Positions 29,595 through 64,000 of a stretch of 64,000 bases of DNA are shown piece after piece. The notes beneath the pieces were generated by a model. It saw only the letters and a list, made by a program, of their open reading frames with translations, was not told where the DNA came from and did no database searches. Every line of letters starts with the position of its first letter. Within the stretch, counting starts at the first letter, position 1. Made by a program: the position numbers and the translations under genes. The stretch comes from Schmidtea polychroa (taxonomy: Eukaryota), in assembly GCA_044892525.1 (NCBI GenBank), contig CM097885.1, forward strand, positions 15,128,001 to 15,192,000, given 5' to 3'.

Positions 29595-29728
29595 AACATG
29601 ACACCCATGATTTGCATCATGTCGGTACTGTACCATGCCGGCGAGCTACGGTGAAGCAGGTGAGCCCCTGCTTTAGGACTACTCCTTCACCCTAACTCGA
29701 CTTTTCGACTGCCAATAGAAGGACTTAC
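29595..29728 (-). ncRNA. Conserved two-hairpin cis RNA motif, copy B
   Basis: GTGAAG/CTTCAC outer stem with ACCTG bulge; second hairpin with AGTACCGA bulge and CATGAT-GCAA-ATCATG. Confidence 0.65.
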
Positions 29729-30151
29729 GTCTTTTCTACTATTCGAGATGCTGGTCAAGATCACGTGACTCCATTATCCATTACTACTTCATCACCACAA
29801 CTCTTCACTCACTTCGACATTACAGAACCGAATACAACACAAAAATCAACAGAACTCCCTTACCACTTGACTCAACATTTATTTGACGAAATACCTTTAT
29901 GACACCGATTATTACCGCCTATTGGGGTAGTTTTACACAACCTTCCTATTATTAGAAAATCAAAAAAAAATCAGACGACAGAAAGGCTACTCATTCAATC
30001 ACAATATCAAGATGTTTATACAAATATTACAAAGTCTATGGGGAAGTCCCAGCGAAAATCATGTCGAGATCAAAGAAATCTCTCGCGTCTTCTTCCCAGG
30101 TAGTGCTAGAGGTGGGCACTACTCGAAACGTAGGCGGTGATCGGACTGCTA

Positions 30152-30796
30152 CTATCGCTGGCAATGTCTGGAGTTTCTGCGTAGCTTCGGCGACCAGTTT
30201 CGCCTCCCGCTCGGCTTGAAGTAATTTTCGTCTTTCGTCCGTTCGGCTCGGGTTGGTTGCCGTCTTTTTGAAGTGTTCGGTGATACCAGGAGAGTGACCG
30301 CTTCCGGTACGACGACTGGCCTCGGAGGGGCTTGGTTGATGCCGGTGATATTGACGTCCGATTGTACGGATGGTAATAGGGTGTCTACACAACTAGTGCA
30401 AGCCTTGCTTGTTGATCGAATCGGGCTTGTTGAGCGATGATGATGAGGGAAAACATTGTCTTCTTCCGATATCGGTATATTAGCGATCGTCTTAGTAATA
30501 GTCGCTTGCACGTAAACCTTGTGCAGGGCCTCTGATTGTTCCTTGATTAATAACCGTAACGAGCGACTCTCTTCGATCATACTATCGCGGTAGTGTTCGG
30601 CCCGCGCCAGTTTCAATGGTACCTCTTTCATTTGCGCAGGTGAAAAGTAGGTACCCTCTAGATGGTCCGATTTATTTTTTAGCAATCCTATCTGAGTCTG
30701 CAGGGTCTTAATGATGGCATTCTTATCAGCGCACGAGAAACATGGCCGAAGAATAGTTGTAGCTTTTGGAGTTTTCGACATGTCTAAAATAACCAA
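30152..30796 (-). CDS. CxxC/coiled-coil LTR ORF, copy B (214 aa, intact)
   Basis: RPCFSCADKN, EGTYFSPAQMKE, EHYRDS, CTSC, KRRQPTRAE; overlapping ORF 30036-30392 ends TWEEDARDFFDLDMIFAG. Confidence 0.7.
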   Translation of the reverse strand: MVILDMSKTPKATTILRPCFSCADKNAIIKTLQTQIGLLKNKSDHLEGTYFSPAQMKEVPLKLARAEHYRDSMIEESRSLRLLIKEQSEALHKVYVQATITKTIANIPISEEDNVFPHHHRSTSPIRSTSKACTSCVDTLLPSVQSDVNITGINQAPPRPVVVPEAVTLLVSPNTSKRRQPTRAERTKDENYFKPSGRRNWSPKLRRNSRHCQR

Positions 30797-33991: not shown

Positions 33992-34432
33992 TCATAGACC
34001 TAGAGCCTGAGAGAACCGGGGCGAGAATGGGTGGCAATTGTGAGCCATGCCCCTTGCAGCTGGTCGTTGATGAGGCTTCAGGCGACTGATGATGTATCGG
34101 GAACACATTAGTCCCGTCTTGGATGGGATATTCTCGAACTCTTTTGGCGATTTCGGTGTCCTGTAGATCTTGTGTAGGGCCTCGGATTGGGCTTTTATCG
34201 TTAGTCTCTGGCACCTACTTTCTTCCAGGAGACTGTCACGGCAGTGCTCCAATCGTAGAATTTTACTCTTCTCCTCTTTCATTTGTGGCCGGGAGAACCA
34301 CGTCCCTTCATACAAGTCGATGCGCTTTTTTAGTGCCCCAATATAGAGATGAAGTTGCGCTATGTCTGCGTTTTTGTCTGCGCAGGAGAAACACGGGCGA
34401 AGGTCTTTGTTGGAATTGGTTGAAGTAGACAT
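33992..34432 (-). pseudogene. CxxC/coiled-coil LTR ORF, copy C (frameshifted C-terminus)
   Basis: RPCFSCADKN...EGTWFSRPQMKE...LEHCRDSLLEESRCQRLTIKAQSEALHKIY. Confidence 0.8.
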
Positions 34433-36197: not shown

Positions 36198-38798
36198 TTA
36201 CCAAGAGACAAAGAAAATTGTAGAGGGGTGATATATAATAACCATAGAATACAAATAAATAAAAGATGCTTTGGCTACAAAAAGATAAATATATAAGTAT
36301 AATTTATTTTTATAAATATGTTGACGATATATGTGGTAGCTGCTATTGATTGCAGCTACGCAAGCTTTTTTGGCTAGTTCCTTTATTTCATTATTGGATA
36401 GGCCGATAATTTTAAGTATCGAGTCATTATTTTTGTCCCATGAACCAAGGGTGCCAACTACCAGGGCATGTAGAGTGTGTGGGCATTTATGGAGTCTACC
36501 TATTTCCTCTCCTAGTTCCTTAAATTTGTAATAGTTATTTCTCCTAGAGTTGTCGTAGTTTTCTCTGGTGTCGAAAGGAACCTTAATGTCTAAGATATGG
36601 ATAGATTTGTTACGCTTAGATTTTAGAAGAAGATCGGGCTTAAGGGTGGAATTGGTACCTTCAGGTACTTTCTCTATGTCTACTTCATAGTTAATAGATA
36701 TAAGGAAGTTTGCCACAGTTTCTAGGACAATATCATGCTTATTTCGTCTTGCATTAATACGTGCTTGGCAATGATTAAAGATGTGTGCAGGTGTTTCTGG
36801 GTGGGCATGGCAGTGCCGGCAGAGTATAGATTTATTAGTCTTTAGGCGGTGTGGTGAGTAGTTCAGTTTTAGAAGGTTGTTGCGTGCGCGAATAAGAAAG
36901 AGGAATTGGGCATCAGGAAGGATGTCACTTTTAAAGAAATAGTCGGCGATGTTGCTTTCGCTAATTGCCTTTGCCATATAGCCCTGGCATTTCATCGCAC
37001 ACCAACGTTCAGCATGAATAAGGCCAATAATAGAGTGTAGTTCAGCTGAGGTTCTATCCACATTAACGAGGGAGAAGTAATTGATACGACTCTTATATTT
37101 TATTTCAAGCTGTAGAAGGTCCTCAAGCATTACAATTTTGGTAGATATACCGTAGTTATGAAGCAGACGGCGGGCGGATTTTTTAAATTTTGAGAAGATG
37201 GAGAAAGTTGGGTAGCTTTTAGAGAGTTGGCCATTCAGCCAGGACAGTGCCACATTTAAATCTCCTTGTCCCCTAGCCTCGATAAGTTCAGCAGTAATGA
37301 GAGTCTTAAAGTTAAGATCGCTAGAGTTTAAAGCCCTGATAAGTTGTACGATGCTTTGAATAAGGTATTCGTCAATGGATGATACAAGTCCAAGACCACC
37401 AAGCTTGCAAGCTGCATATAAGAAGTTGTCGTTCAGCTGCATTATCCTATCGCCAATGGATCTTTTAATACCCTGTTTTATTTGCAGGTCGAATCCATAT
37501 TGTTGTATTTCAGAGTTACGAAGGATGTTGCGCGGAGAGTCAAGGATGTTGTGGTTAATGACACAATTTCTAAAAGTAAAGTTCAAGCGGGAGTGGATGA
37601 ATACTTTAAAGGCATTAATTTTTTGCGAAGGATGTAGATGAGAGTTGAGAATTTTGTTTGTGTCTATAATAGCGGAGTCTAGTCTTTCTTTGATACAGTG
37701 TTTAGTTTTATGGGAGAAGTCAACCCCAAGATATCTGTACATATTAGAGTCGTCAATTTTTGGAAGGGTTTCGCCATAGAGTAGAATAGGTTGGTAGTTG
37801 CAGTCGTGATCAACATGAAAGTATCCGGATTTCGAGGGTTTAAAGCGTAGGTTGACCTTTGTTGCAAGGGAGACAGTGAGAGATAGGGCCGACTTGATAT
37901 TGGAGTAGGAATCAGATATAAGCACTATATCATCGGCATACGCAAGAATTCTAATGTTGTGATTATGAAAGAGAAACGGGTGAGTTTGTAAGACATTGCG
38001 GAGTATGAAGTCAATGGATAGACAGAACAGAGTCATGGACAAGGGGCAGCCTTGTTTCACACCTTTATAAATTGGTGTATAATCAGATTTTTCTCCCTCA
38101 CATTCAAAGTAAGTTTGTACATTGTTGTACATGTCCTGAAGAAGAGCAATAGTGGTGTTGTGAAGACCCATCTCTGAGAGAGTGTACCAGATGAGTTCAT
38201 GTGGAATAGATCCGAAGGCATCCGCTATATCTAGCCAAATGATATGTAGGTCGTTTTTCTTGCGATAGGAAGAGTCTTTTATGAGATGGAGGATAAGATT
38301 GTGTTCAGCACATCCATCCGGTGCGCAGATAGCTTTTTGGTTAGGTGTTAGGAGATTTCCGTTACTGATCCATTCAAGAAGACGGTTATTCATTAGTGAG
38401 GCAAATATCCTATAGGCAGTGTTCATAATTGAGATCGGTCTCCAGGAGTTAGCCTCGTGGCTTATTTCAGCTTTACCAGATTTAAGAATGAGTCGGGTAC
38501 GAAAGGATTTCCAGCATACTGGAGATCTGGAATTACGAAGGATGTTGTTACATAAGGCAAGGATGAGCTCAAAGTTAGGAGATATCTTTCTCCAATCGCT
38601 AAGAGATATTTTATCAGTACCAGGGGCAGTATTGTCGAGTTGGCAGAAGGTGCTTTTAATGTCATCAGTGTCAAAGGGAGTGATGGTGAAGGATTCAGAG
38701 AGTGTTGGGTACTGATAGTTAAGGTCAAAGGTGCAATCAGAGGTTTTGCTAGCGAAGAGTTTTAGGATACTATCCATATTTGGTGTGTGAGTTTTCAC
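36198..38798 (-). CDS. Reverse transcriptase + restriction-like endonuclease
   Basis: WRPISI, GCAEHN, GVKQGCPLS, LAYADD, YLG; CRHC...HIFNHC zinc knuckle; KPDL...ILDIKVPF. Confidence 0.95.
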   Translation of the reverse strand: MKTHTPNMDSILKLFASKTSDCTFDLNYQYPTLSESFTITPFDTDDIKSTFCQLDNTAPGTDKISLSDWRKISPNFELILALCNNILRNSRSPVCWKSFRTRLILKSGKAEISHEANSWRPISIMNTAYRIFASLMNNRLLEWISNGNLLTPNQKAICAPDGCAEHNLILHLIKDSSYRKKNDLHIIWLDIADAFGSIPHELIWYTLSEMGLHNTTIALLQDMYNNVQTYFECEGEKSDYTPIYKGVKQGCPLSMTLFCLSIDFILRNVLQTHPFLFHNHNIRILAYADDIVLISDSYSNIKSALSLTVSLATKVNLRFKPSKSGYFHVDHDCNYQPILLYGETLPKIDDSNMYRYLGVDFSHKTKHCIKERLDSAIIDTNKILNSHLHPSQKINAFKVFIHSRLNFTFRNCVINHNILDSPRNILRNSEIQQYGFDLQIKQGIKRSIGDRIMQLNDNFLYAACKLGGLGLVSSIDEYLIQSIVQLIRALNSSDLNFKTLITAELIEARGQGDLNVALSWLNGQLSKSYPTFSIFSKFKKSARRLLHNYGISTKIVMLEDLLQLEIKYKSRINYFSLVNVDRTSAELHSIIGLIHAERWCAMKCQGYMAKAISESNIADYFFKSDILPDAQFLFLIRARNNLLKLNYSPHRLKTNKSILCRHCHAHPETPAHIFNHCQARINARRNKHDIVLETVANFLISINYEVDIEKVPEGTNSTLKPDLLLKSKRNKSIHILDIKVPFDTRENYDNSRRNNYYKFKELGEEIGRLHKCPHTLHALVVGTLGSWDKNNDSILKIIGLSNNEIKELAKKACVAAINSSYHIYRQHIYKNKLYLYIYLFVAKASFIYLYSMVIIYHPSTIFFVSW

Positions 38799-38806
38799 TT
38801 CATTAT

Positions 38807-39568
38807 TTAAATTTTGGAGATTTCCTCTTTAGGGGCAAATTTATATTTTTGTCTCTTGGTAAAGACCAGTTCTTTACTAACCTTATAATTTTTATGAATT
38901 ATGTCCGCTGCTTTCTTTGTGATGTATTTATGAGGATTAATGCTTCCATTAATTCTCTCAATCTCACTTAAAGCAGCATCGCACTCTATTAGATTATTGT
39001 TAAGATTAATAATTAGACAATTGATAAATGGTCGGAATCTCCGCACATCATCAATTGGCAGTTTGCAATAATTATAATTATTTATAGTAGTTTTAATATT
39101 ATTTATCATATTGGGTATATTAGGACAAGTTAATTTTTCACGTTTAATAAGGCATTCGATAAAGTGACATATATAGAAGGCAGAGTCAGTAGGTATGAAG
39201 CAGCGAGGGTAATCGGGGTTTTGAAGTTCAATTTTGACAGGGCTAACAATTTTTTGGAGATCAAGAATGGTTTCGAGAATATTTTGAGCTAGAAAGAGGT
39301 GAGTAGAAAGGCCATCATCCAGAAGCGGGTCAATGAGGACGGCAAGTCTACGGTGTTTGTCGAGTAGAAAAAAGAACCAGTTGTCCTTACCATCAGACAT
39401 GGGCATGATAATCTCATTCCATTGAGCAAATTCAGAGAATGGAAAGGTGGCAAAGAAAGTTACATAGTTATGCTGGATAAGTGCATTTCCTATGAAAGGG
39501 TCCACAAAGATAGAGGAGTTTTTCAAGGCATTTGAAAAGATGTATGCCTTGATTGCGTGTTGGGACCA
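38807..39568 (-). pseudogene. Ulp1-like cysteine protease domain with altered catalytic residues
   Basis: WSQHAIKAYI...IIMPM..DNWFFFLLD...VLIDPL...PTDSAFYICHF follows the Ulp1 layout; His>Asn, Cys>Ser. Confidence 0.6.
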
Positions 39569-42500
39569 TCATGTCGACTCTTTCTCAACATTATTACCAA
39601 AAATAAGGGTATCAGGAAGAGGTCGTTTGACAATTTCACTTTCAGAGAAGGTAGCCTCAAATTCTTGCGACTCAAGTATAGGGCGTAGGTTGTTCACATT
39701 ATCGGGGGAACTATCCATTACTTGGGAGATCACAGGCGGAGTGGGGATATTGCCCGGATACACGTAAGGTTCAGGGTGGTTTTCGAGAATATGTTGTCGG
39801 ACATGGTGATGAGGGATCCATGATCCGCAGAAGCAGTATACCTCCTCGTCAGGATAAAAGATAAGTTTTTTATGCTTGACCTTTATATGGTTAATAATGG
39901 TCATAAGAGGGGTGTCAATGTCGAAGGTGATTTTACATTTTTTACGATTTTTGCTATAGTTGAAGCAGGTAAGGTTATTGGAGGGTGATATCCGTATTTC
40001 AGCGCGGCTCATATATTCAAGATCACATTGGTCTATGTGTTGAAAATGGACAATGTGATTATAGATTTGTTTGAAGGTTATAGGATTTGGCGCGTATTTA
40101 TTCTCACCGGGGGCTCTACATTGAATGCAATCAATAAGTGTGTTTTCGTCAATTTTTAATCTATGAAAGTCCCATGCGTGTTTAAAGATTTTTTTACGAT
40201 TATGGACAGAAATAGGACTGCATAGGGTTGTCTTGCATTTCAATCTGCATTCAATTTTACCCCTACCATTAAGTTTGAAAAATATTTTGTTGTCTAGTTC
40301 ACTCTCATCTGCAGTTTTTGGGATGAAGACATTGCGTGTGTGTTTGGCTAGTGTAATGGGTCTGAGATAATTAGGAGATGGGCCAGGGATATTAGTCGCA
40401 AACACTTGTATTTTTTTATTAAATACTTCCATTTGTGATTGTATTCTTAATGCCTCTTGGATTTCGTTGCATTCAGATTCAGAAGGAGTAGGTGCGGTGA
40501 TTTTAGGTGTACTGCTAAGCTCAATAGCGTTGGTAGTTTTAGATTGAGTAAGTTCAGGCGTATTATGAAGAGAGGCAGTTGTCATAGGATGTAGGTCAGT
40601 GTTGTTGTCGGGAGAGGAAGAGGCTGTGGGCTGGAGAGGTGGTTCTTGGTCGATAGAGGCTATACTGCTGCTCGATAGATTCACATCATCTATGTCCGAG
40701 TTAAAAAGATCATTGTTTGGCTGGGGATTTACAAGAGATTGAGAAGGGTTATGAGGAGTTTGAGAATTAGACTCATCCATTGGAAGGGGGTCAATGGTGT
40801 CATCAAGGTCACAGCTGTAGTGTGAAGTGTCAAGAATGTAATCAGAGCAAGAGGAGGACGAGTGGTTAGGCGAGAGATCAGAGTCATTGTCAATAGTATC
40901 ATTTAATGGAGATCGTTTAACATGGGGAAGGGCAATGAGGGAATCATCAGTATTGTTCTCATAATTATTAATTTTATTTTTATTTTTATAAATAGAGTAA
41001 AGGGTTGTGTATTTACCCTTACGTATGATTTTTTTAACAAAACACGATTTTATTACTTTATTATTGTTATCGTTATAAGTTGGGGGAAGGTTTTTAAGAT
41101 CCTTGGGCTTATGGATGAAGTCATTGGGAATAGGCTCAGAATAATGACGTTTCATTGAAGTTCCAAGGTTGTTATTTGAAGGATTTACAGGTATAGTTGG
41201 GATATTTGAAGAGTTAGCTAAGTAATTGGGCTTGTTTAGAGAAGTAAGAAAGGTATCAGTAGCTTGGGAATTTGCTGGTTGTGTTCCAGTTGAGTGTTCT
41301 AAGGTAGGCGAAAGACTAACAGGATTTCCACTGAAGGTGACTGTCTTTGCAGATGCGAGGCGGCCGTAGGCCTGCGAGCTGCGTGTTTTCTCGTGTTCCG
41401 AAGGAACACGAGAAAAATTTTTAAGAGAAAAAGCATGGTTAAATAAATGATATTTAAACAAAGATTTATCTTTGTTTAATATAGATAATTTATTTAAGCT
41501 AATAAAATCAGAAATATTATTAAATATAATGCTAATTAATTCGTTAGGGAGTCTTTCGGTGGAGTTTTGAATTTTATTATAATCAATAATTATTTTTTTA
41601 ATAACATATTTAATTTTGTTCTTAAAAAATTTTTCATAATTATAATTAGTTAGGTCATTTTCATAATTATTATTTTTATCTTTTAGATTTAGATTTTCAA
41701 CATTTAAATTGGAAGTATATTTAGAATTATAATTAGTTTGGACATTTTCATTATTATTTTTATCCTTTAGAATTAAATTTTTATCATTTAAATTGAAAGT
41801 ATATTTAGAATTATAATTAGTTTGGTCGTTTTCATAATTATTATTTTTATCCTTTAGATTTAAATTTTCATTATTTAAATTGAAAGTATATTTAGAATTA
41901 GATTTAATTAAATTACAATTATTACAGTTTAATTTCAATTCATAGTTTTTAAAATTTAAATTAAAATTATGATTATCAAAAATTACATTACAATTTTTAC
42001 TATTTAAATTGCATTTACAATTATTACATATTAATTCGTGAATAGACTTTTTATGATTATAATCATTATAGAAATTTTGATTATAATTACCTTTATTTTT
42101 ATTTAGGATGTGAATCCTCCGAGCAGGGCAAAAGGCTTTCCAAGAAGTATCTCTGGTCGGGTCCGAGGATGCATTCTCTGGAGCAATAATATCATAACAA
42201 GGAGGAGAGATTCCGTATTTCTTCAGGATCTTCCTGGCAGGACAGAATCTGCTATCCATCACCTCACAGTCGTCTGGTTTCCTTGGAGCATCAAGATTCG
42301 ATACATCAGGGCAGGAGGCATAAGGTGATTCAAGGAATCGGATTTCATTATTTCTATAAGGAGGATTAGTAAATGTTGAAAGTAATTTATCCTTGATGCC
42401 ATTTCCCGGATTGGAGCTTCTTCCATTTCTGTTTGAAGGAGCTTTATCGGATCTAGAAAGGAGATTAGACTGTGATAAAATCAAATTTTTATTAATGATA

Positions 42501-42655
42501 TCTCCAGGATTGGAGTTTCTTCCATCAGTAAACGTATCGTCATGTTCAGAGTCCTCAGCCGATTTCTGCCCAGTGCTATGAATGATATATAGCAGTAGTT
42601 CTGCTAAGCACTGGGTAACGGCGGGTAATAAGTATTTGAATAGATTGACTTGCAT
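39569..42655 (-). CDS. N-terminal region of the NeSL polyprotein: C2H2-like fingers, low-complexity linker, inserted Asn-rich segment
   Basis: 1028-aa ORF with four Cys/His clusters near its C-terminus; separated from the Ulp1-like part by a single in-frame TGA. Confidence 0.75.
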   Translation of the reverse strand: MQVNLFKYLLPAVTQCLAELLLYIIHSTGQKSAEDSEHDDTFTDGRNSNPGDIINKNLILSQSNLLSRSDKAPSNRNGRSSNPGNGIKDKLLSTFTNPPYRNNEIRFLESPYASCPDVSNLDAPRKPDDCEVMDSRFCPARKILKKYGISPPCYDIIAPENASSDPTRDTSWKAFCPARRIHILNKNKGNYNQNFYNDYNHKKSIHELICNNCKCNLNSKNCNVIFDNHNFNLNFKNYELKLNCNNCNLIKSNSKYTFNLNNENLNLKDKNNNYENDQTNYNSKYTFNLNDKNLILKDKNNNENVQTNYNSKYTSNLNVENLNLKDKNNNYENDLTNYNYEKFFKNKIKYVIKKIIIDYNKIQNSTERLPNELISIIFNNISDFISLNKLSILNKDKSLFKYHLFNHAFSLKNFSRVPSEHEKTRSSQAYGRLASAKTVTFSGNPVSLSPTLEHSTGTQPANSQATDTFLTSLNKPNYLANSSNIPTIPVNPSNNNLGTSMKRHYSEPIPNDFIHKPKDLKNLPPTYNDNNNKVIKSCFVKKIIRKGKYTTLYSIYKNKNKINNYENNTDDSLIALPHVKRSPLNDTIDNDSDLSPNHSSSSCSDYILDTSHYSCDLDDTIDPLPMDESNSQTPHNPSQSLVNPQPNNDLFNSDIDDVNLSSSSIASIDQEPPLQPTASSSPDNNTDLHPMTTASLHNTPELTQSKTTNAIELSSTPKITAPTPSESECNEIQEALRIQSQMEVFNKKIQVFATNIPGPSPNYLRPITLAKHTRNVFIPKTADESELDNKIFFKLNGRGKIECRLKCKTTLCSPISVHNRKKIFKHAWDFHRLKIDENTLIDCIQCRAPGENKYAPNPITFKQIYNHIVHFQHIDQCDLEYMSRAEIRISPSNNLTCFNYSKNRKKCKITFDIDTPLMTIINHIKVKHKKLIFYPDEEVYCFCGSWIPHHHVRQHILENHPEPYVYPGNIPTPPVISQVMDSSPDNVNNLRPILESQEFEATFSESEIVKRPLPDTLIFGNNVEKEST
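41640..41900. repeat. 84-87-bp tandem repeat x3 inside the ORF
   Basis: Encodes SKYTFNLNxxNLxLKDKNNNxENxxTNYN three times. Confidence 0.9.
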
Positions 42656-44452: not shown

Positions 44453-47040
44453 CCCTTAAATGCATGATGATGTATTTATACATCAGTGTATTTGTCCTTA
44501 AATAATTTCTAAACGGTAACTCAAACACAGTATATTTTGCTTTTATTAGGTGCTAAAAATATTTATCTTAGTTTCTGAACGCAAGCTGTCACAATATGGC
44601 AGTTAACTTTTTCAATTGTCAAAATTTGACAGCTTGGCGCAGCATTTTCGAATACGCACTTTGGCGGTCAAATTAAAATTTTATTTTAATGCATACTAAA
44701 TAGTATTATTACGCGATAAAAGTGATTGACGAGAGGATAGAGGTAAGCAGAACACGTTGCATTATTTTTTTTTAAATACAGTAACAGTTTTTGTAAATAT
44801 TAGCTGTACAATTGTGATGTAGAAATACATCAGTATGCAAAATCGGTTAAAAAAAAGTTTTACTGCAGGTATAATATATTTTTTTATTTTTGACTTATTT
44901 GTATACAGATACATACTATATTCATATGAATTTTATGATTATTTATCCAGAATGTCCCGTGAATTGGCAGACAAAGACATAGAACAACTTCTGGCAGCTT
45001 TAGAAGATGGAAATATTTCTGAGGATGGCTTGGAAGATGAAAGTGAAGATGAAGAAACCTTTTTCGCTAATGCAAGAGAAATAATTCAAGAGTTGGAAGA
45101 CGAGGATGCAGAGGACCATGAAGATCCTACCTATAGTGATCCACCACTAGTTCAAGATTTGCCTGGCCCATCAAGTCAAACTATTATTTCATTACCCATG
45201 CAAGAAGGTATTCAACAATATGTAGAGTTTGATAAAAGGAAACTCATTTGGAAAAAAGACAGTTTGTTGTTTGACGAATCGAAAATAATTCACCAACCAA
45301 ACACAACAGACTCTGCTATAACTGAACTTGATACACCATATAAATGTTTTTTGCACTACTTCACACCAGAGTTCCTTCAAAAAATTGTTGATAAAACTAA
45401 CTTATATGCAGTACAGAAAAACCCTTCAGTATCTTTCACTACTACTGTTGGGGAGTTAAAAAAATTCATAGGTATTCTTTTATTTATGTCAGTGGAGCAA
45501 TTCCCTAGTGTACGCTCATACTGGCATTCCAAGTTTGGGTACGATCCTGTAAAGAGCGCGATGCCTGTAAATCGGTTTGAGATGATTCGGAGCTACTTAC
45601 ATTTCAACGATAATAATAAACATCTTCCGCGAGACCATTCCGATCACGATCGCCTCCATAAGATTCGGCCTGTGATAGAACAGCTAAATACGACATTTTC
45701 ATCAGTTGCAATAGACCAACGACTTTCTATAGATGAACAGATGTGTTCCACTAAAATTGCACATTTCCTGAAGCAATATTTACCAAATAAGCCTCACAAA
45801 TGGGGCTATAAGCTTTTTGTTCTCTGTAATCTTATGGGATATGCTTACAGATTTGAGGTCTATTCTGGACAAGAAGAAAAAAAAGACAAACCAGCCCATG
45901 AACCTGATCTAGGAATAACAAATAACGTCGTTATACGTATGGCGAGAGCTATACCAAGGATGAACAATCATATAGTATTCTTCGATAATTTTTACACATC
46001 CCTGCCTTTAGTAAATTATTTGAATAAACAGGGTATACAATGTGTCGGAACTATTCAGCAAAACAGGCTACCGAATTGTCGACTCCCTGATAAAAAGGAA
46101 CTTATGAAAACTTCTGTTCCGAGAGGCACATATGAGGAACGCGTTTCCCATTCAGATGGAGTAGACTTTTCGGCCACTGCGCGGAAAGATAATAAAGTCG
46201 TCACTCTTTTATCGACTTACGTCGGCGCCGAGCCTGTTGGAAAAGTATCAAGATACGACAAGAAAGCTAAACAAAAAATTGACATCCCTTGCCCCAAAAT
46301 TGTGCAAGAGTACAACATGCATATGGGAGGAGTCGACCTAATGGACAGCTTTTTAGGACGCTATCGAATTCGAATAAAGAGCCGAAAATGGTATTTACGC
46401 TTGTTTTATCATCTACTGGACCTCACTACAATGAACTTATGGGTGCTTATGAAAAAAAATTTAATTGCTAAAGGTGTCACAAAAAAGCAGCTGCCTAATC
46501 TTGGGGAGTTTCGTAATTGTTTAGCTGACACACTGTGTAATATAGGTATGTCTGGAGGTAGTAAAAGAGGGCGCCCTAGTACTTCCTCTCTAGAACGCGA
46601 GCTTCAAATAAAAAGGCAAAAAGGTCCGCAACATCCACTCCCGTCAAAAGATGTACGCGTAGATAAATTCGAACATTGGCCCGTATTTGCCAATCGATTA
46701 CGGTGCAAGATGCCCAATTGTAAGGGCACCACACAATGGTCGTGTACCAAATGTAATATACCGCTGTGTCTAAATCAGAGAAACAACTGTTTCAAAGATT
46801 TTCATTCACTGCAGTAAGCCTAATTCGACGACAATCGTCCAATAGCACAGTACTTAGGCTACATTATTAATATTAACTGTAATGCATACTGATGTAGATC
46901 TACATCAGTAAGATTTTTTTATAAAAATATACTTTTTGGAAAATAAATATTTTTTTCTTTATTTTTCCCTTTATCTATGCTTAATTATTTATCTGTGTCA
47001 ATTTATAGTATTAAAAAAGGAAAAATCATGCATTTAAGGG
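44453..47040 (+). mobile_element. Complete piggyBac transposon
   Basis: TTAA 44449-44452 and 47041-47044; perfect 16-bp TIR CCCTTAAATGCATGAT. Confidence 0.98.
44835..46817 (+). CDS. piggyBac transposase, intact (likely start MSRELADK at 44952)
   Basis: DDD triad SIDEQM, FFDNFYTS, GGVDLMD; C-terminal Cys-rich domain RCKMPNC...CTKC...C...CFKDFH. Confidence 0.95.
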   Translation: MQNRLKKSFTAGIIYFFIFDLFVYRYILYSYEFYDYLSRMSRELADKDIEQLLAALEDGNISEDGLEDESEDEETFFANAREIIQELEDEDAEDHEDPTYSDPPLVQDLPGPSSQTIISLPMQEGIQQYVEFDKRKLIWKKDSLLFDESKIIHQPNTTDSAITELDTPYKCFLHYFTPEFLQKIVDKTNLYAVQKNPSVSFTTTVGELKKFIGILLFMSVEQFPSVRSYWHSKFGYDPVKSAMPVNRFEMIRSYLHFNDNNKHLPRDHSDHDRLHKIRPVIEQLNTTFSSVAIDQRLSIDEQMCSTKIAHFLKQYLPNKPHKWGYKLFVLCNLMGYAYRFEVYSGQEEKKDKPAHEPDLGITNNVVIRMARAIPRMNNHIVFFDNFYTSLPLVNYLNKQGIQCVGTIQQNRLPNCRLPDKKELMKTSVPRGTYEERVSHSDGVDFSATARKDNKVVTLLSTYVGAEPVGKVSRYDKKAKQKIDIPCPKIVQEYNMHMGGVDLMDSFLGRYRIRIKSRKWYLRLFYHLLDLTTMNLWVLMKKNLIAKGVTKKQLPNLGEFRNCLADTLCNIGMSGGSKRGRPSTSSLERELQIKRQKGPQHPLPSKDVRVDKFEHWPVFANRLRCKMPNCKGTTQWSCTKCNIPLCLNQRNNCFKDFHSLQ

Positions 47041-47955: not shown

Positions 47956-50312
47956 CAACGATGGGCAAATGCGGCTCTTCGTTGAGTAAACTGCGGCTCA
48001 TTGATAATTGAATTCTTGATAATCGAATTCGATTTTTTATTTTGAAATTTTTCACTAAATGTCATAAATGTCAAAAATTAACGAAACATTGTTTTTCACA
48101 TTTTACTGCTTTTTAAAATTATTTTGTAGTAGGCGGCGCTTTGTTATAACAACGAGAGAGAAGCATCAAAAATAAATTTAGTGAATTTTGATTGGTTATT
48201 ATTTTGTTTGTACAAGATTGCGGTCGTTTGTATATTTTAGTATAGTTTTCTATTCGTGTTTTTTGAAAAATTTGGTAAGAAGATTTTTTTATGAAGCATT
48301 TTAAAATTTTAAACTAATTAAAATTAAATTAATGTCTTTTTATTATTTTGTTTAAATTTCAGCCATATAGTTATTTAAATTTATTATTATAATGACATCA
48401 GAAAACATCAAAAACCAATTTACGTCGACACTATGAAGTAAGTCATCCACACTTATCAATTCAATATCCAATCAATTCAAACTTGCGGACAGAAAAACTT
48501 AAGTCATTGCAATCAGGGCTTCAAGCCCAACAAGGACTATTATCTACTTTTAGTCGAGAAGATGACAGTGCCAACGAAGCTAGTTTTTTGATAGCTCGTG
48601 CTAAACGTCCATATGGAGAAGGTGAATTTATTAAGAGAAACTTGGAAGAAGTGATTAAAGTTTTGGATCCGGACAACTCAAAACTACATAAATTGATCTC
48701 ACGTATTCCTATTTCACGTCGTACAACTGAGCGTCGAATTGGCCAAATTAGCGAAAATGTTGAAAATAATTTGATGTGTGATTTAAAAAATTGTACAGCA
48801 TTCAGTTTAGCTCTCGACGAGTCTACTGACATTCAGGATGTTCCACAATTAGCCGTTTTTGTCCGCTTTGTACCTTCTGACGTAAAAGTGAAGGAAGAAA
48901 TGTTAGACCTAGTAGCTCTTCTCGAAATAACTCGCGGTATCGATGTCAAAACTGCGCTTGATGTAGTTATGGACAGGTTCGAATTGGCTCGTGACAAACT
49001 TGTAAGTGTTGCGACAGACGGAGCGCCTGCAATGATGGGGAAAAATCAAGGTCTCATTGGTCTTTTAAACAGAGATCCTAATATTCCTCACTTTTTATCT
49101 CTTCACTGCATAATTTATCGCGAGCATCTCATAGCGAAGTACTTTAAATACGAAAATGTGTGGAAGATTGTTTTGAAGATTGTGAATTTAATTAGAACAA
49201 ATGCCAAAACACATCGTCAATTTAAAAACTTTTTGGAAGAATTAAGATTAAATGACGAAACTGATGATTTGCCTAATGATGTCTCCTTATGGTGTATTGT
49301 TAGATGGCTGTCAACTTACAATGTTTTGAACCGTTTTGTGGAACTCCTAAATCCTATCATAATATTTACCAAAGAAAACGGAATAGCATACCCAGAATTA
49401 GAAAATGAAACTTGGCTTTCTGACTTAATGTTCCTTACAGACATTATGGAACATTTGCAAACATTAAATTTGGCTTTACAAGGAAAAGAAAAGATAATTA
49501 TTGATTTGTCACAAACGTTATTTAGTTTTGAAGCTAAACTTCGGCTTTTTGTGAGCGATCTTAGGTCGAAAATATTTAATCATTTTCCACGAATAAAAGC
49601 TAATATAATTGATATTACATAAGAAAAAGTAAACGAATACAGTGAAAAATTGGAAGAATTGCAAGCGGATTTCAAATGTAGGTTTGAAGATTTGAAAAGT
49701 TATAAATCTACATTTGCATTTTTTGTGAACCCATTTATTTGTGATATTATTGAAGATGGATTTCCAATTTCTGAAGTAATACTTGTTAAAAAAGCGGTTG
49801 GGGAATTGAAGTTATTAAATATGAAAGAGGACCAGGCTTTGCAAATGCACCATAAATCTACTTCTATAGTTGAATTTTGGAAACTCGTACCAGAGGCAAA
49901 ATATCCACACTTAAAACAAGCTGCTTGCCGTCTAATTTCAATTTTTGGTACAACATATTGTTGTGAATCTTTGTACTCCACAATGAAGTTCGCAAAGTCG
50001 AAATATCGTTCACAGTTGACCAATCAGCATCTTACAGAATTGCTGCGAACAGCTTTGACAAAGTATACACCAAATTTCAAAGATTTGACCAAAAGTCTTC
50101 GTTAATTCAAGAAATTTTATTACTTTTTATTAATGGATTTTTATGTTTGTTACTTAATGTTTGAAATAATTATTTTGTTTTTTTGTAATAGCGTTTTAGT
50201 CTCTTTAATCAAATTAATGAAATAAAAAAAATATGTACTTTACTATGGTGGCTCTGTAAAAAATAAATTTTCGGAAAATGGCTCTTATTGAACCCATGCG
50301 TGCCCACCCTTG
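47956..50312 (+). mobile_element. SPIN/GTF2IRD2-like hAT element
   Basis: Imperfect ends CAACGATGGGCAA and GTGCCCACCCTTG; no clear TSD; transposase inside. Confidence 0.8.
48400..50105 (+). pseudogene. hAT transposase with N-terminal damage and one in-frame stop (49620-49622)
   Basis: FSLALDESTD, ATDGAPAM, LHCIIYRE, VRWLS, FGTTYCCESLYS; ORFs 48483-49622 and 49650-50105 share a frame. Confidence 0.9.
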
Positions 50313-53352: not shown

Positions 53353-53491
53353 CCGACGCATGAGCCCGTGGTGATGTTCCACGTTGGTGCTGCCCACACG
53401 GGTCGGAAGAGGTTAGCAGGTGAGCCTCTGCCTTAAAACTACTCCTAACCCCTTCTCGGTTCAGGTTCCTAGGCGCCTTGGAAGGACTTAC
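53353..53491 (-). ncRNA. Conserved two-hairpin cis RNA motif, copy D
   Basis: GGGGTTAG/CTAACCTC outer stem, ACCTG bulge; second hairpin with AGCACCAA bulge and CGTGG/CCACG. Confidence 0.65.
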
Positions 53492-54539
53492 CCATTTCCA
53501 TGCTCATACTCGGTCCAACCCTGGTCCAAGGGGTCGACCTTCATTTCATGGCATGTATTCAGTTAATAAATCAATCCATGCGTTTTACTCACCATTCTCA
53601 CAATTAAATCAACCAACATCAAGGAAATTATATTATTTGCATCACACGCTACAGGTTATTGAAGACAAAACATCTTACACTAATGTTTAATATAATATCG
53701 ACCAAAAACACTGATGAGTTGTCATGCACATAAGGATTGGTTAGTAAGCCTATTAGGAACAAGAGGTCGACACTGTCGTCACGTTAGGTCCTCAGAAGGC
53801 TTCTCCGTCGGCGAACACTTCGTCTATGTCTACGGGATATCGACGGTCCGCAAGATACTTGATTCCATCGGCCGGAACCACTCTAAATATTTCCTTGGCC
53901 GGAATCACATGGGAGGCTGAGATATCCTTAATAGTGGACTGGGCCACATCTACTATTGGAAATAACAAGATTCACTAAGAAACGATCAAATCTTCGCGTT
54001 GATGTTGGAATATATAACGATTTCCTCTGAGCTTTCCTATGCAATTTCTCTCTTTTACCGAGCTAGAAGGCTACTATTCCTCCATGGAAAAGTTGTCAAG
54101 ACATCATCGATCTCACTCGGCGAAGAAGCTCCTCTCGACTCGATCATTATTATCGACCAGATGTCCTCACCCCTCCTGACCCACCCAAGAGTGGCATACA
54201 TCTCTGTCACCACTCTTGGACCGTCAGGAAGGACGATTCTATCTCTACCCAACTCCCATCATAAATATATAGTGAACGATTATCAAAAAAAAATGAATTA
54301 CATGATTTGCTAGATGGATTTACCTATATAAAAAGATTATTTACCTGGCGACCACGCCGTCTGAATTTCGAACATGATGCCATATCGTAGTATCCATCCT
54401 ATTTTTACTGCTTCATTTCCAGTGAGGTCTCATTTATTCAGATCCTCAATTCAACGTCTTCACTGCTTATCGTTCATTCATAGGCATTTCCATTCATTCG
54501 AGTAAAGGATTATATATTAAACCGAATATCGAACCCACG

Positions 54540-55031
54540 TGCAATGAAAAAAAATGTTAAAATCGCTGTTCAGCAAATAGGATATAATATAATAAACCTT
54601 ACACAGAGTTCAACAGCCGAAGGAACAGCGGCAAATAGATCTGTCAGCAAGCGACCAAGATGTTATATTTGCCCTCGATCCGCTGATAAGAAAACAGGAA
54701 CAAGATGTTATGTTTGTAATCAGCCATCTTGCAAAACACATAAAAACCGTTTGCATAAATTGTATCAACGAAGAAGTAATGGATTCGCTCGAAGAAGAAA
54801 ACAATGAAATTATGTCAGACGATGCGTCTGGTTAATTTTTTTTATGTAATATAATATAATTTAAATTATCTTAATCTTATATATTTTGAATAAAAAAGTT
54901 TTTTTCATTAATTAATAAAAATAACATGACTATTTTTTAACAAAAAGATCATAAAAAGCATTAAAATATATATGGGGTCGGGTTGACCCCATGCACAGAC
55001 TATGGAAAATTTACTATGCACAGACAGAAGG
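54540..55031 (+). mobile_element. piggyBac 3' remnant (Cys-rich domain + terminus)
   Basis: RCYICPRSADKKT..RCYVC...C..H; subterminal GGGGTCGGGTTGACCCC; ends AAGG|TTAA. Confidence 0.75.
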
Positions 55032-58567: not shown

Positions 58568-59230
58568 TTGCATATTCTATATCTCAATCTTACCTTTATA
58601 GCTATCATGATGCCAACTGCGAAGCCCGTGTTACGTCCATGCTTCTCCTGCTCGGATAAAAACGCAATCATCAAGGACCTACAGACCCAGATTGGGCGAT
58701 ATAAAAAGAAAATAGATGAATTAGAGGGGACATGGTTTAGTCCCGCTCAAATGAAAGAAACACAGAAAAAGCTATACCGTAGCGAACATTGTCGGGACGC
58801 TCTAATCTCCGAGAGCCGTTCCAAAAGAAGTTTGATAAAGGAGCAGTCCGAAGCGCTGCACAAAGTACACCTGCAGGCAGCGACCACTAGGAAAATAGTC
58901 AGAATTCCCATCAATGAAGCCGACAATCTCTTTCCGGCACACCACGACACTTCTTCAAAGTCGTCGCCTCCTTCTAAGAAGTCTTGCCAAGAGTGCATAG
59001 AGACTCAGCTCTCGCCCAAACAACCAGACGTCATTTTCGTGGGAACAAGTAAAGCGCCACCTACTATCGCTTCTACATCCACTATACCTCCAACTAATCC
59101 AACGACATCCAAGCCAAAGCGTCGGCAATTATCAAGAGCCGAATGTAAAAGGAAGCAGCGGGAGCGAATAACCACCAAGCAGAACACACAACCAACGGAA
59201 ATTGTAGCCAGGCATATGCATCTCACCTTT
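58568..59230 (+). CDS. CxxC/coiled-coil LTR ORF, copy E, truncated by the viral insertion (likely start at MMPTAK)
   Basis: RPCFSCSDKN...EGTWFSPAQMKE...EHCRD...CQEC...KRRQLSRAE. Confidence 0.75.
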
Positions 59231-59262
59231 ATAAATACGAGGTTTCATTTTATAATTTCAGA

Positions 59263-60165
59263 ATGACTGATAATATTCTAAATACTTTTGTAGAAAAAAT
59301 TAAATTGTACTTAAACAAACCAAACGAAACTTACCCAGAATATATTTTACCTGAATATTTCAATAGATTTTCAGACACACCGAAGGCATATATCAAAGAA
59401 GATAGTGAAATTTATTCACTATACAAACACTATTATAACGAATTTCATCCGCTACTGATTGGTCCACACTCGGTCAAATTAGCATTCGTATTAGATTCAT
59501 TTGCTGGTAAGTTTAGTTTATATGAATATTTTATTATTTAAATATTAGATTTAGATTTTCAAAACGACATATTAGAATTATGGGATCTAGTAATCATGAA
59601 AAGGACGATGAGGGTCAATCAAATACCAATCTCTCCAATGATGGACGAAGTCATGAGAGGAAACGAAGGAGACATTCTTCTCGAAGACATAAACGAACTC
59701 ATCACAAACGACATTCCAGCATACAAGAAATCTCTAGCGACAGTCAAGAGCGGTCAAGTAGTATATCTACCGTACTGTCTGGCACATCTGTGTCCGATAT
59801 GCGAACTCCTTCGAAGACTAGTTCGATACCTAAAATCAAGCGACCTGCTAAGCACGTTTCCCGCAAACATTCGAGCAGGAGACACAATGATTCTCAGCAT
59901 CGTGATATACCAGCTATCAAAGATGTTACTGAGTTGGTTTCAGATAATAAAGCTCAAAATAATCATCCGGAACGAGCAAGAAGATTTAATTCCTTCAAAT
60001 TTCAAGTATCTGTTAACAAATATCGATCTTTGGAGCCGGAGCTTAAAAAGCTCATGGAGGACAAATCCTTCACAAGATTCGTTACAGGTCAAGAAGAGGA
60101 AGGTGATAATGGATATCACCATATGCAAATGTATTGGGAGGTATTATTTATTTTATTCAATTTAG
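59263..60165 (+). CDS. Spliced accessory ORF (exon 59263-59506, exon 59555-60165) overprinting Rep
   Basis: G|GTAAGT donor at 59507 and TTAG acceptor at 59554 (or 59548) join ORF 59263 in frame to ORF 59596. Confidence 0.6.
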
Positions 60166-60999
60166 ATATTAATGGAATAAAATTAATAATTACAGATTTA
60201 CAACAATATGTCAGTATATGCCTTTAGGGCAAAGACGGATATTCCCTTTGTCAGAGGAGTCGCCGGAGTCGAGCGTCAATCCGCTATCGAATATGCAACA
60301 AAACCTGAGTCTCGAGTTACAGGAGGACTATCTGTAAACATAGGAACTCAAAGTAAATTCAATTGTGCTTCTAATACAGATTACTTCAAACAAGCTCTAA
60401 ATTCTGCCTCGATGAAAATAGGATTAGAAATATTAATGCAGCACGAAGCATTCCATTACACAACAAAACGAAAAACAATAATGGAAACTTTCGTAAATAA
60501 ATTCGGACAATCAACTATGCCAAATTTTAATGACAATTTCATGATTGACAAAATAAATTTACTTGACTGGAAGAGCCATATTTTTGTTGGAGAATCTGGC
60601 ATTGGTAAAACAAACTTTGCCTTGTCACACTTCAAGAATCCTGTTCATTGCAAGCATCTCCAAATGCTTAACAGAATATCCGATAATGTAGATAAATGTG
60701 ACGGTGTAGTTTTTGACGATCTATATTTTAATAAAACAAGAATAGAAGAATTTCTTTCATTGGTAGATTGTGCATATGAAAATGTCATAAATATCAAGTA
60801 TTCGGTAGCTGTTGTTCCAAAGGGATTACCCAGAATATTTTGTATAAACGATTTGGACCTATTTTACCCAGAATGCATTTCTCCAACAATTATGGAAGCT
60901 GTACATAGAAGAATAAAAATACATCATTTCCGAGGCAGGATATTTAGAGAATACAAATCTGAACAAGTAAAAATTTTGTTATATTATTTTTTAAATTAA
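59580..60999 (+). CDS. rep: Rolling-circle Rep (HUH endonuclease + SF3 helicase), exons 59580-60140 and 60196-60999
   Basis: Motif I-like FKFQVSVN, motif II HHMQMY, motif III YATK, Walker A GESGIGKT, Walker B VVFDD, motif C RIFCIN, Arg finger AVHRR; a 55-nt GT-AG phase-0 intron joins the halves. Confidence 0.85.
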
Positions 61000-61171
61000 T
61001 TATTAGACAATGAAACATCCATATCTGATACCGAGCCAATGTCCCAACCAAAGTGTCGATTGCTCAGTATCCAGTGCAAATCATGTATGAAGTTCATGCG
61101 AATTTACTTGGGAGTGTGCAATAATAGTTTTTAATGTTTAATGTTTTATAATAATAAATGTTTATAAACAG

Positions 61172-61840
61172 TTAAAAGAAATTCTTTATTTTATCAAAAA
61201 TATCATACTTAACATCATTCAATACATTTATATCTTCAAATACATTTATATGAGTATTAAATTCGTATGCCTTTTCTACAACAATATATAGGGAACGATT
61301 TTTAAGAGCTTGTTCATGTTCAGAGGCATATTTCCATATAGGATGATTATTGGATATTATACATGGGCAATTACTTAGTTCAATTTTTGAATCACCTTTA
61401 CGAGAAACTTTTAGAAAAATATTACCTTCACATAATAACTTTAATAAATTAACATTTTTGAAATCGCAATATATTTCTTCTCCAATGATAATTTCTTTTC
61501 CGACACAATCATCGAAACAAAATTCACTTTGAGTTTGTGCACCAGTAAAAAATCCATGTTTAAGAGTCCCACGACAAATTGCAGTAAATAATGTTTTTCC
61601 ACCATTACTTGCACCTTCTAATATAATCGTCTTGGTCTTTCCGGCTTGAGACGATAAGATTGTATATATCCCAAGAAGACGACGAATATATTTTTCATTT
61701 TCTTTAGGGATAATGTGACGATTTTCAGAAATAAGTTTATTAATTTGTCGATTGTGATCGCTGTTAAAATGGAAATTATTGTTATTAATAAAAGCTTCCA
61801 TAAAAGTTGATAATTCATTGTATAACAATAGCTTATTCAT
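61172..61840 (-). CDS. Stand-alone parvovirus NS1/papillomavirus E1-like SF3 helicase domain
   Basis: Walker A GASNGGKT, FCFDDC...IIIGEE (Walker B), KLLCEG...VSRK (B'), PCIISNN (C), ALKNR; no nuclease domain. Confidence 0.85.
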   Translation of the reverse strand: MNKLLLYNELSTFMEAFINNNNFHFNSDHNRQINKLISENRHIIPKENEKYIRRLLGIYTILSSQAGKTKTIILEGASNGGKTLFTAICRGTLKHGFFTGAQTQSEFCFDDCVGKEIIIGEEIYCDFKNVNLLKLLCEGNIFLKVSRKGDSKIELSNCPCIISNNHPIWKYASEHEQALKNRSLYIVVEKAYEFNTHINVFEDINVLNDVKYDIFDKIKNFF

Positions 61841-62034
61841 TAGACAATGAAAGATAATTGTAATATGTGTGTATAAATATTATTGATTATTTGTGTTTTA
61901 TGACTCATCTTAAAAATATTATAGTAAAGTAAAGGCATTTATTACTATGCCATTCTTGGATAACCCATCTGCCTGTACTTTACTATATATATTTTAATAA
62001 ACTCCCACGCAGTCATGTGTTTTGCGGTGTGCTT

Positions 62035-62173
62035 CTCTCATAGACTTGGTAAGAGAGGGGTGTCGGGGGGCCCCTATATCTATAGCACGCCATGGCGTGC
62101 TTATTAATAAACCATGGTTTATTATGAGATATAGGGGCCCCCCGACACCCCCCTCTTACCAAATCTATGAGAG
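62035..62173. repeat. T-shaped terminal hairpin (inverted repeat with two internal palindromes)
   Basis: 47-bp arms 62035-62081 and 62127-62173 (2 mismatches); palindromes GCACGCCATGGCGTGC 62085-62100 and TAATAAACCATGGTTTATTA 62105-62124. Confidence 0.95.
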
Positions 62174-62537
62174 TGACTTGGGAGGAGAATGCCTCTGAGA
62201 TTTTCGACTTAGAGGAGTTGCTAGCAGATACGGAGTGTTAGAAATAAGAATGCTCTCGTGGGGTAACTCTATCATTAGGAAAATAGTCGAACTAAATATC
62301 ATCGTGTTTTTCTGTCATTGTTTTCTCTCATCTAGATATTCCTGTTGTATATAAATCATCGATGTTGTGTATGTTTGATGCTACAACAAATAATTTTATG
62401 TCTTTACCTCATTTAGTTTGTAAAGGATTTAGTATGACTGTAACAAAGAGGGTTGAAGGTTCCTCGAGAATTCTAGGAGTATTAGTCAATTGTATCCCAA
62501 CCAGAGGTAGGAAAGTGAATTTATAATTCGGATAGAC

Positions 62538-62679
62538 GTAAGTCCTTCTATCGGCGGTCGAAAGCGGTAAGTCGAGGCCTCAGTAAGGAGTAGTCCTAAG
62601 GTAGGGGCTCACCTGCTTACTGGTGTCTCGCCGGCATGGTACAGTTCCAACGTGGAGCAATTCACGGGTACCATGTTGG
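62538..62679 (+). ncRNA. Conserved two-hairpin cis RNA motif, copy in unit E
   Basis: CAGTAAG/CTTACTG stem with ACCTG bulge; CCGGCATGGTAC/GTACCATGTTGG stem, AGTTCCAA bulge, CGTGGA-GCAA-TTCACG. Confidence 0.65.
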
Positions 62680-64000
62680 ATGGCAGGTTATGTGCGGGCT
62701 CTGCTCGGGGTTGACAAAGTAATGACGAGCATAATCGTAACGGGCATTCATCTCCTAGGCCAAAGTTGAATTATTGGTGAGTAGTGCCCCAGCAAGATAT
62801 AAATTTATTCAAATAATGCGTTTCTTCCATTTTTTGAACAACGAAAATTAAAATACCTGTAAACTTGGTAAGATCGAAAATATAATGCAAAAACTGGCTC
62901 AAATTTCCTAACTGCATTCACACTGGTAAAAATATATGTATTAATAAAGCTTGCAGCTTTGAAAAAGTTAGCTAAGTTTCAATCAATATATGATGATAAA
63001 TGCAATTCTAGTCCAGCACTATTTCAATACTACAAAATCGGAGGTGGTGACATTGTAGACAAATAAAAAAAGTTTATTTCATTTTCAAAAATGGAGATAT
63101 TGAATGTCCTCTTCGCCCAAAAATGGCAAGATAAAAGAAGTTTATAAGTTGTAAATTATTCACATTAATGAGTTTGCTAATTGTAGCAATAGTAACCGAG
63201 TTACAAATAAAAATATAACGAAACCATGATCTATTATGGAGTATTCGAAGCATATGAGATGTGTAGATTCATTTGATATGCAGAATTTGATTTTCAGAAT
63301 CTGGCAAAACAATAAAATGATAAATAATTGTTTTCCGTTTCATAGATATGACAGTGTATTATTTGCCATAATGTATTTGCTTTTTACAAAATAAAGCATA
63401 AAAATATAAAGCATTTGACAGATATACGCCTTGTAGTGGTTTATTTTTTAAATATGTAACTTTTATCATTTATCAAATTGCAGACATTCAATCGCAATTT
63501 CGAAAAGTAAATGGTAACTTTCAAACCTCAACAAAAGGGGTTTATCAAAAAAATTTGCAACTATGTGTAAAGATTACAACATCCAACATTGTACAATAGA
63601 TTATTTCGAAGATTATCATAGCAAAATTCAATTTTAGTCAAAAGAATAATTAGGATAAATTTATTGATGTAAATAAAAATAACAAAATATAAAATTTAAT
63701 AATTCAAGTTCCTTTTCAAAATTTTTCATCATTTAGAACCTGTTTTTATTGAAAGTTATCTTTAAAAATTTTATTGTATAATGTTACGCAATTCAGACTT
63801 TATATTTTTTTCAATTCACTTTCATATGAAGGTGAGACATTATTTAATCAATAAATTAGTAAACACATTGACGACAATACGAATTTTTTCATTTCTGCTT
63901 TGTGAGACAAAACTAATAAAATAATACAGTACGTGAGGTGAAGAAGTTAAGCAAGTACTACGGACGTACTATTGTCGCAAATCGAACAAGACAGGTCCAC

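Follow-up and report, generated by a model that had tools for sequence, protein, structure and literature searches.

A putative 55-nt spliceosomal intron between motifs II and III of a Rep gene in a PEVE-related cassette of Schmidtea polychroa

The window analyzed here is a stretch of 64,000 nucleotides of the Schmidtea polychroa genome (assembly GCA_044892525.1, contig CM097885.1, positions 15,128,001 to 15,192,000, forward strand), and all the positions refer to it unless a locus of another element is named. Close to its right end a cassette is inserted in a host repeat; it carries a Rep gene with HUH endonuclease motifs I-III fused to an SF3 helicase, as in CRESS-DNA viruses, an open frame (ORF X) that overlaps the 5' part of Rep, a convergent gene for a helicase-only protein, and a T-shaped terminal palindrome. 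The features of the region are the following:

58607..59198, plus strand: 5' part of the host repeat ORF Y, target of the insertion (paralogues at 30036-30811 and 33992-34432, both on the minus strand)
59199..62173, strand not assigned: PEVE-related cassette of about 2.97 kb in the host repeat (alignment of its flanks with the paralogue at 29560-30830, and contig joints)
59230..59235, plus strand: TATA-like box upstream of ORF X (putative function)
59263..59506, plus strand: ORF X exon 1, from the first ATG (open frame)
59507..59548, plus strand: candidate intron 1, 42 nt, GTAAGT donor, phase 1, linking X exon 1 to the frame 59542-60165
59549..60140, plus strand: ORF X exon 2, in the other frame over Rep exon 1 (open frame)
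59580..60140, plus strand: Rep exon 1, with the Ser/Arg-rich extension, motif I and motif II (His codon at 60120) (homology)
60141..60195, plus strand: predicted intron, GT-AG, 55 nt, phase 0 for Rep and phase 2 for X
60196..60337, plus strand: ORF X exon 3, 46 codons to the stop, over Rep exon 2 (open frame)
60196..60966, plus strand: Rep exon 2, with motif III (Tyr codon at 60292) and the SF3 helicase (homology)
60967..61006, plus strand: candidate intron 3, 40 nt, phase 0, behind the helicase (GT..AG, 93% A+T)
61007..61090, plus strand: possible last Rep exon, 27 codons (predicted)
61153..61190, both strands: facing poly(A) signals, AATAAA on the plus strand at 61153 and on the minus strand at 61185-61190 (putative function)
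61172..61879, minus strand: helicase-only SF3 ORF (Parvo_NS1/E1-like), 235 codons, convergent with Rep (Pfam PF01057, E 7.6e-14)
62035..62173, strand not assigned: T-shaped terminal palindrome with a 47-bp stem (fold z -14; 0 of 200 shuffles)
62174..62241, plus strand: final codons of ORF Y, which restarts directly after the hairpin (flank alignment)

At the right border of the cassette the last base of the hairpin is the insertion junction, and ORF Y resumes at 62174 in register with the paralogue at approximately 30 kb, with a loss of about 60 nt of the repeat. The left end lacks a hairpin and is uncertain by approximately 15 nt. For comparison with other copies, four (X1, X4, X5 and X7) of the 15 listed sequencing runs, all of them contigs, were compared with the window at 80% likeness. 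A relative in X5 aligns from 59198 onward, which places the left boundary, and the contig joints 59183 to 62171 and 59200 to 62171 represent copies of the repeat without the cassette, either a paralogue or an empty allele. PEVE was represented by its long segment (locus L001) and its small segment (L006), and its two other large ORFs had no tblastx match in the 64-kb window. Given the missing left hairpin and these two unmatched ORFs, the copy looks cut short at the left, and we consider it probably left-truncated; the replication origin could lie in the missing part. No capsid/VP ORF was found in this cassette copy; the 277-codon PEVE ORF that possibly encodes a capsid gave a single-sequence fold with a pLDDT of 34 and no match in a PDB search.

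The ORF Y repeat family (58607-59198 with 62174-62780; 30036-30811 and 33992-34432 on the minus strand) has a length of about 220-270 codons and showed no Pfam family above the cut-off. The contig depth of its 3' part is very high in three of the runs; pieces of this part are also present in run X7, assigned to RNA by guess, and one of these pieces ends in a run of A. Other repeat-like DNA is also present in the window: a 38-nt inverted match (84%) connects 53412-53449 with 62583-62620, in copies 9 kb apart, and transposon-like ORFs were recognized by eye at 36198-42655 (minus strand), 44823-46817, 54484-54807, 1482-3258, 24158-25432 and 48396-50105. These ORFs may represent a reverse-transcriptase element (frame junctions at approximately 38810 and 39569) and piggyBac-like and hAT-like transposases.

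The protein encoded by the helicase-only gene is similar to the product of the PEVE small segment L006 1053-1703 (31% identity over 219 aa, E 9e-28), and a word-index search gave no homologue for it. An imperfect 28-bp inverted repeat (61910-61997) surrounds the TATA-like box of this gene. The hairpin includes two perfect inner palindromes (62084-62101 and 62105-62124) and no nonanucleotide; the sole NANTATTAC match is located at 61417, inside the helicase ORF.

The Rep coding region is interrupted by a change of frame. The frame that starts at ATG 59580 ends at the stop 60225-60227, and the downstream frame comprises 60190-60999; the two are connected by the plus-strand segment 60141-60195, which has 55 nt, starts with GT, ends with AG and is in phase 0 with respect to the upstream frame. 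Both the GT donor and the YAG acceptor of a U2-type intron are therefore present, and the A+T content of the segment is 87%, versus 59% and 66% in the flanking exons. Two TTAAT words (60169 and 60183) are branch-point-like, a weak sign in DNA with 87% A+T. Removal of the 55 nt restores the frame and yields a Rep of homologue length, 454 aa, in good agreement with the complete protein of about 455 aa of the original prediction; it would be 471 aa if the candidate 60967-61006 were also removed, whereas if this last segment is retained exon 2 continues to the stop 60997-60999. A strict scan for mini-introns (GT[AG][AT]..YAG, 30-70 nt, at least 85% A+T) detected 3 donors in 59200-61170, versus 0.36 per kb window-wide and 0.015 per exon-base shuffle; in a looser list the 42-, 55- and 40-nt candidates are among 21 rows.

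The position of the junction was evaluated by homology. A profile search, with the two Rep pieces of the window included in the profile, recovered 2043 relatives at E <=0.001, of which 150 were listed; the spacing of motifs within each homologue is independent of the inclusion of these pieces. From the His of motif II to the Tyr of motif III there are 39 codons if 60141-60195 is removed and approximately 57 (57.3) if it is kept. Among the first 70 homologues listed (280-460 aa), 67 have the His and the Tyr at the corresponding columns, and their spacing is 36-47 codons (37-40 in 51 of them); in the related loci L001, L012, L015 and L016 it is 39, 39, 37 and 39 codons, respectively. The alignment of homologue P0001 crosses the junction with neither a missing nor an additional residue, and for 28 of the 33 homologues aligned to both pieces the gap implied at the junction is between -2 and +1 (overall range, -6 to +4); retention of the segment would require a gap of +18. 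It was also observed that, among 10 frame-linking GT/GC-AG choices, scored with X at the junction, 60141-60195 ranks first with 279.7 bits, followed by a choice that includes a stop (264.4) and by the next open one (260.6). Two other choices were discarded: the in-frame acceptor at 60165 (25 nt) leaves a stop, and a 94-nt choice leaves only 26 codons between motifs II and III. The uninterrupted homologues thus carry no coding sequence at the place of 60141-60195, and the original proposal of a phase 0 GT-AG intron of 55 nt that splits Rep between motifs II and III stands as regards position, phase and order of the motifs. From these sequence comparisons, we conclude that 60141-60195 is very likely a true mini-intron of the U2 type, which the spliceosome would remove. 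The Rep gene that contains it belongs to an integrated element of the ssDNA type, related to PEVE/PIVE, in a copy that is probably truncated at the left.

The related copies are informative in this regard. Several distinct contigs of X1, X4 and X5 cover the cassette at 80-96% identity, which indicates that related cassette copies exist. One of them (X4 record 11, 89% identity) covers 60096-60537 without gaps. In the X5 relative there are three one-base indels, all of them inside 60141-60195 and with a net change of +1; no other row from the cassette appears in the 12 listed of 157 indel rows, and given that exon-sequence gaps also occur in related contigs (X5 records 16 and 17, X1 record 5), this contrast is not a full count. 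Regarding substitutions, among the 40 listed of 1439 rows, 9 of the 13 in exon 2 fall on third positions of Rep, and 5 of the 6 in 59580-59960 fall on third positions of X. None of the 15 listed contig joints (of 45) removes 60141-60195, which has no bearing on expression either way; run X7 covers 2 of 30 bins, none of them within the cassette. A joint from 60143 to 60217 in X5 was set aside because its ends are non-canonical and one side has only 20 letters.

An alternative that we regard as very unlikely is that a 55-nt insertion broke the gene after integration, and that its GT and AG ends occur by chance. The host DNA is indeed AT-rich, no intron is present at this position in any of the four relatives with DNA (PEVE L001, L012, L015 and L016, in which the region from motif II to motif III is contiguous), and degenerate copies exist, as shown by the frame breaks of L015 and L016. 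Nonetheless, both exons and both genes of the cassette are otherwise open, copies that have diverged by approximately 11% retain the segment, the insertion point leaves the register of the homologues exact, open frames are likewise connected by two other such segments, and strict look-alikes are rare. Even less probable is a programmed ribosomal frameshift that joins the frames within their 35-nt overlap (60190-60224): the upstream frame is certainly open through 60141-60195, but motifs II and III would then be 57-58 codons apart, more than the 36-47 of the 67 homologues, there is no slippery heptamer in 60141-60227, and the net +1 base of the X5 relative lies inside the segment. Finally, a sequencing or assembly error, conceivable in a window that has N gaps elsewhere, is practically negligible, since an X1 contig (60096-60474) and an X4 contig (60096-60537) match the window with 0 differences and 0 gaps (one of these runs may be the source sample), so that the frame break belongs to the DNA; nor would an error account for 18 codons more than in the homologues.

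The predicted intron would also serve the frame that overlaps Rep. X is predicted from 59263 to 60337 as a protein of 325 aa encoded in three exons, and it probably uses the same 55-nt intron as Rep; if the segment is retained, X ends at the stop 60163-60165, inside it. The removal of candidate intron 1 (59507-59548) eliminates the sole ATG between the X and Rep starts. When the codons of Rep exon 1 were shuffled synonymously, the X frame remained open in 1 of 2000 shuffles; past the 60140/60196 junction, it was open for 46 codons in 53 of 2000 synonymous shuffles. X therefore looks like the constrained frame over the Ser/Arg-rich N-terminus of Rep, and, considering the shuffles together with the substitutions at X third positions, the Ser/Arg-rich extension of Rep may be largely a by-product of X. 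The Ser/Arg-rich N-terminus that had been assigned to Rep is thus present, but it is overlapped by this second, apparently constrained open frame. X has no detectable similarity to the overlapping ORF of PEVE, and no homologue was found elsewhere, including a word-index search.

The Rep and the convergent helicase-only protein are both, as judged from sequence, homologues of PEVE proteins; the identity between the window and PEVE Reps is 29% over 242 aa. In a quick tree of 64 rows (a short search with no bootstrap, in which no starred set holds the window Rep), the Rep falls in a group of 10 rows with PEVE and with the soil-metagenome loci L012, L015 and L016 (SH-aLRT 94). The predicted model of a group member (P0014) matches the vientovirus Rep first and also the Reps of PCV2 and AAV, and the profile of the homologue alignment matches the PCV2 Rep by sequence. 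Pfam named neither Rep piece, and nothing useful was obtained from a phage collection, viral-contig scans with single window proteins, a PDB sequence search with exon 2, or Rfam. The gene is no isolated CRESS-like Rep: it sits in a cassette related to PEVE/PIVE, together with a second gene, for a helicase-only protein, and with a hairpin at one end, a context that the initial description lacked. Integrated PEVE relatives, known as PIVE, are described from Schmidtea mediterranea (PMC3198968).

The cassette and PEVE share a circovirus-like CRESS-type HUH-SF3 Rep with a separate helicase-only E1/NS1-like gene, an upstream ORF that overlaps the Ser/Arg-rich Rep extension, and, within the HUH domain, a small GT-AG segment by which both ORFs change frame. 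In PEVE, too, Rep and the helicase gene are probably convergent, given that the last codons of its helicase lie in the repeat that faces Rep. The differences are also evident. The candidate intron of PEVE is located between motifs I and II and that of the window between motifs II and III; L001 has AT-rich inverted repeats of 243 nt, whereas there is none between or around Rep and the helicase gene in the window, and for this reason the cassette was classed as PEVE-related and not as PEVE. In addition, the two further large ORFs of the long segment have no counterpart in the window, and the cassette ends in a T-shaped hairpin, in contrast to the deposited PEVE ends, which do not form one: nothing in the three PEVE stretches tested folds like the GC-rich T-shaped hairpin of the window. 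Extrachromosomal, partly single-stranded forms were reportedly described in the 2002 PEVE paper.

Candidate introns were also identified in the related Reps. In PEVE, a 56-nt GT-AG segment (L001 4028-4083) is predicted between motifs I and II; it ranks first of 19 frame-linking choices in spite of a weak donor, and as in the window it is in phase 0 for Rep and in phase 2 for the overlapping frame. The PEVE Rep as deposited has 272 aa, and motif I is encoded upstream of it in a different frame (L001 3548-4083). L012 (1958-2909) has two predicted AT-rich GT-AG segments, one ahead of motif I (48 nt) and one close to the end of the helicase (46 nt), and in L015 (96-996) segments of 45 and 40 nt are predicted at the same two places. 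In L016 there is one before motif I (up to 410), with a donor that is unsure by phase, and another of 40 nt after motif C (1218-1257). A profile scan of five Rep loci outside the group (L011, L013, L014, L017 and L018) detected no such interruption. The Rep unit of L012 lies among ORFs that resemble a non-LTR retroelement. In the close homologues P0010, P0011 and P0012, the start of the protein or an odd hydrophobic stretch of approximately 17 residues lies immediately on one side or the other of motif II; judging from the proteins, the gene caller probably read through additional introns there. Since the predicted introns of the related elements are at other positions, they would have been gained (or lost) lineage by lineage.

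Several known systems can be compared with this locus. In geminiviruses, RepA keeps motifs I-III when the transcript is unspliced; in contrast, retention of the segment in the window Rep loses motif III. Parvoviridae include viruses with the T-shaped ITR of AAV, the overlapping NS frames and convergent transcription of densoviruses, and the helicase-only protein Rep40 of AAV. The cassette resembles them in its T-shaped terminal palindrome (at one end only), the facing poly(A) signals, the overlapping frames and a helicase of the Parvo_NS1 type; it differs in that its HUH-SF3 protein is CRESS-like, the parvo-like helicase is a separate protein without an HUH domain, and there is no VP. Within CRESS viruses, the literature reports a spliced Rep for the geminivirus C1:C2 (PMC13649057), putative Rep introns in 36 cruciviruses (PMC7468197), Rep introns in cycloviruses (PMC8622408, PMC9241739) and other Reps marked as interrupted by introns (PMC6186406). 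In these spliced Reps, as in the window, a GT-AG intron links two frames into a full HUH-SF3 protein; nonetheless, those viruses have circular genomes that encode a capsid and a nonanucleotide stem-loop, whereas the window gene is chromosomal and its hairpin lacks the nonanucleotide, and the window unit has up to three mini-introns and a splice common to an overlapping frame. The cyclovirus CN9E has a putative intron of 56 nt, and the ORF downstream of it lacks motifs I and II (PMC8622408), so that this intron is apparently at a place similar to that of the window; the position is thus less unique than the original contrast with geminiviruses and genomoviruses implied. Replitrons (PMC10288648) lack a fused helicase and bear short direct terminal repeats, and Replitron-1 has host-type introns. 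Replitrons and Helitrons share with the cassette the chromosomal HUH genes and hairpins at an end; the window Rep departs from Replitrons in its fused SF3 helicase, and from Helitrons, which have two catalytic Tyr, in its one Tyr motif together with the fused SF3 helicase. On the features compared, the labels of Replitron, Helitron, parvovirus and plain CRESS virus were excluded.

With putative introns already reported in the Reps of cyclo-, cruci- and geminiviruses, an intron by itself is modest news and ordinary for CRESS Reps. The interest lies in the shifting of the predicted intron positions in a neglected group, the splice that serves two frames, and the combination of a parvovirus-like hairpin with a CRESS-type Rep. 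The word intron does not appear in the text or in three supplements of PMC3198968, which discusses PEVE/PIVE, and the text of the preprint 10.1101/551184 only cites these elements; introns or termini may already be mentioned in the 2002 description of PEVE or in the entry for PIVE in Repbase. Our literature search, the 2002 PEVE paper aside, returned no publication on linear hairpin-ended CRESS/parvovirus-like elements in flatworms.

We propose that the gene could work as follows. Transcription by host Pol II would begin downstream of the TATA box (59230), and the introns of 42, 55 and probably 40 nt would be taken out by the spliceosome. The first AUG (59263) would direct the synthesis of the 325-aa protein X, and the AUG that follows it once the message is spliced (59580, with A at -3 and G at +4) that of the HUH-SF3 Rep of 454-471 aa by leaky scanning, with the single splice at 60141-60195 serving both frames. 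The layout of X and Rep has an analogue in the overlapping NS2/NS1 frames of densoviruses. A message that retains the 55 nt would give a 215-aa product with neither the Tyr nor the helicase, and X would stop within the intron; with the metal-binding motif II on one side of the intron and the catalytic Tyr on the other, splicing would act as an all-or-none gate on nicking. Such introns would be gained or lost lineage by lineage in hosts whose own introns are short and AT-rich.

More tentatively, and with considerable doubt, PEVE-related elements may be linear ssDNA replicons with hairpin ends, in which a CRESS-type Rep, aided by a Rep40-like helicase, resolves parvovirus-like T-shaped termini, and in which Rep is gated by host-style mini-introns of fast turnover; these would lie within the nuclease domain, and one of them would be common to Rep and an overlapping frame. 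If this is true, these elements would represent a natural hybrid of rolling-circle and rolling-hairpin replication. A splice common to two frames and placed between the metal-binding motif and the catalytic Tyr would be a simple and testable control point, and the hairpin at the exact boundary of the insertion offers a first handle on the replication and integration of PEVE-like elements. The gene models would also be corrected: motif I is missing from the deposited PEVE Rep and is found upstream of a candidate intron that the annotation lacks, and Reps of this kind come out of ORF callers split or truncated. With seven or so predicted intron positions in five related Reps, this group may provide a compact case of intron gain and loss in virus-like DNA.
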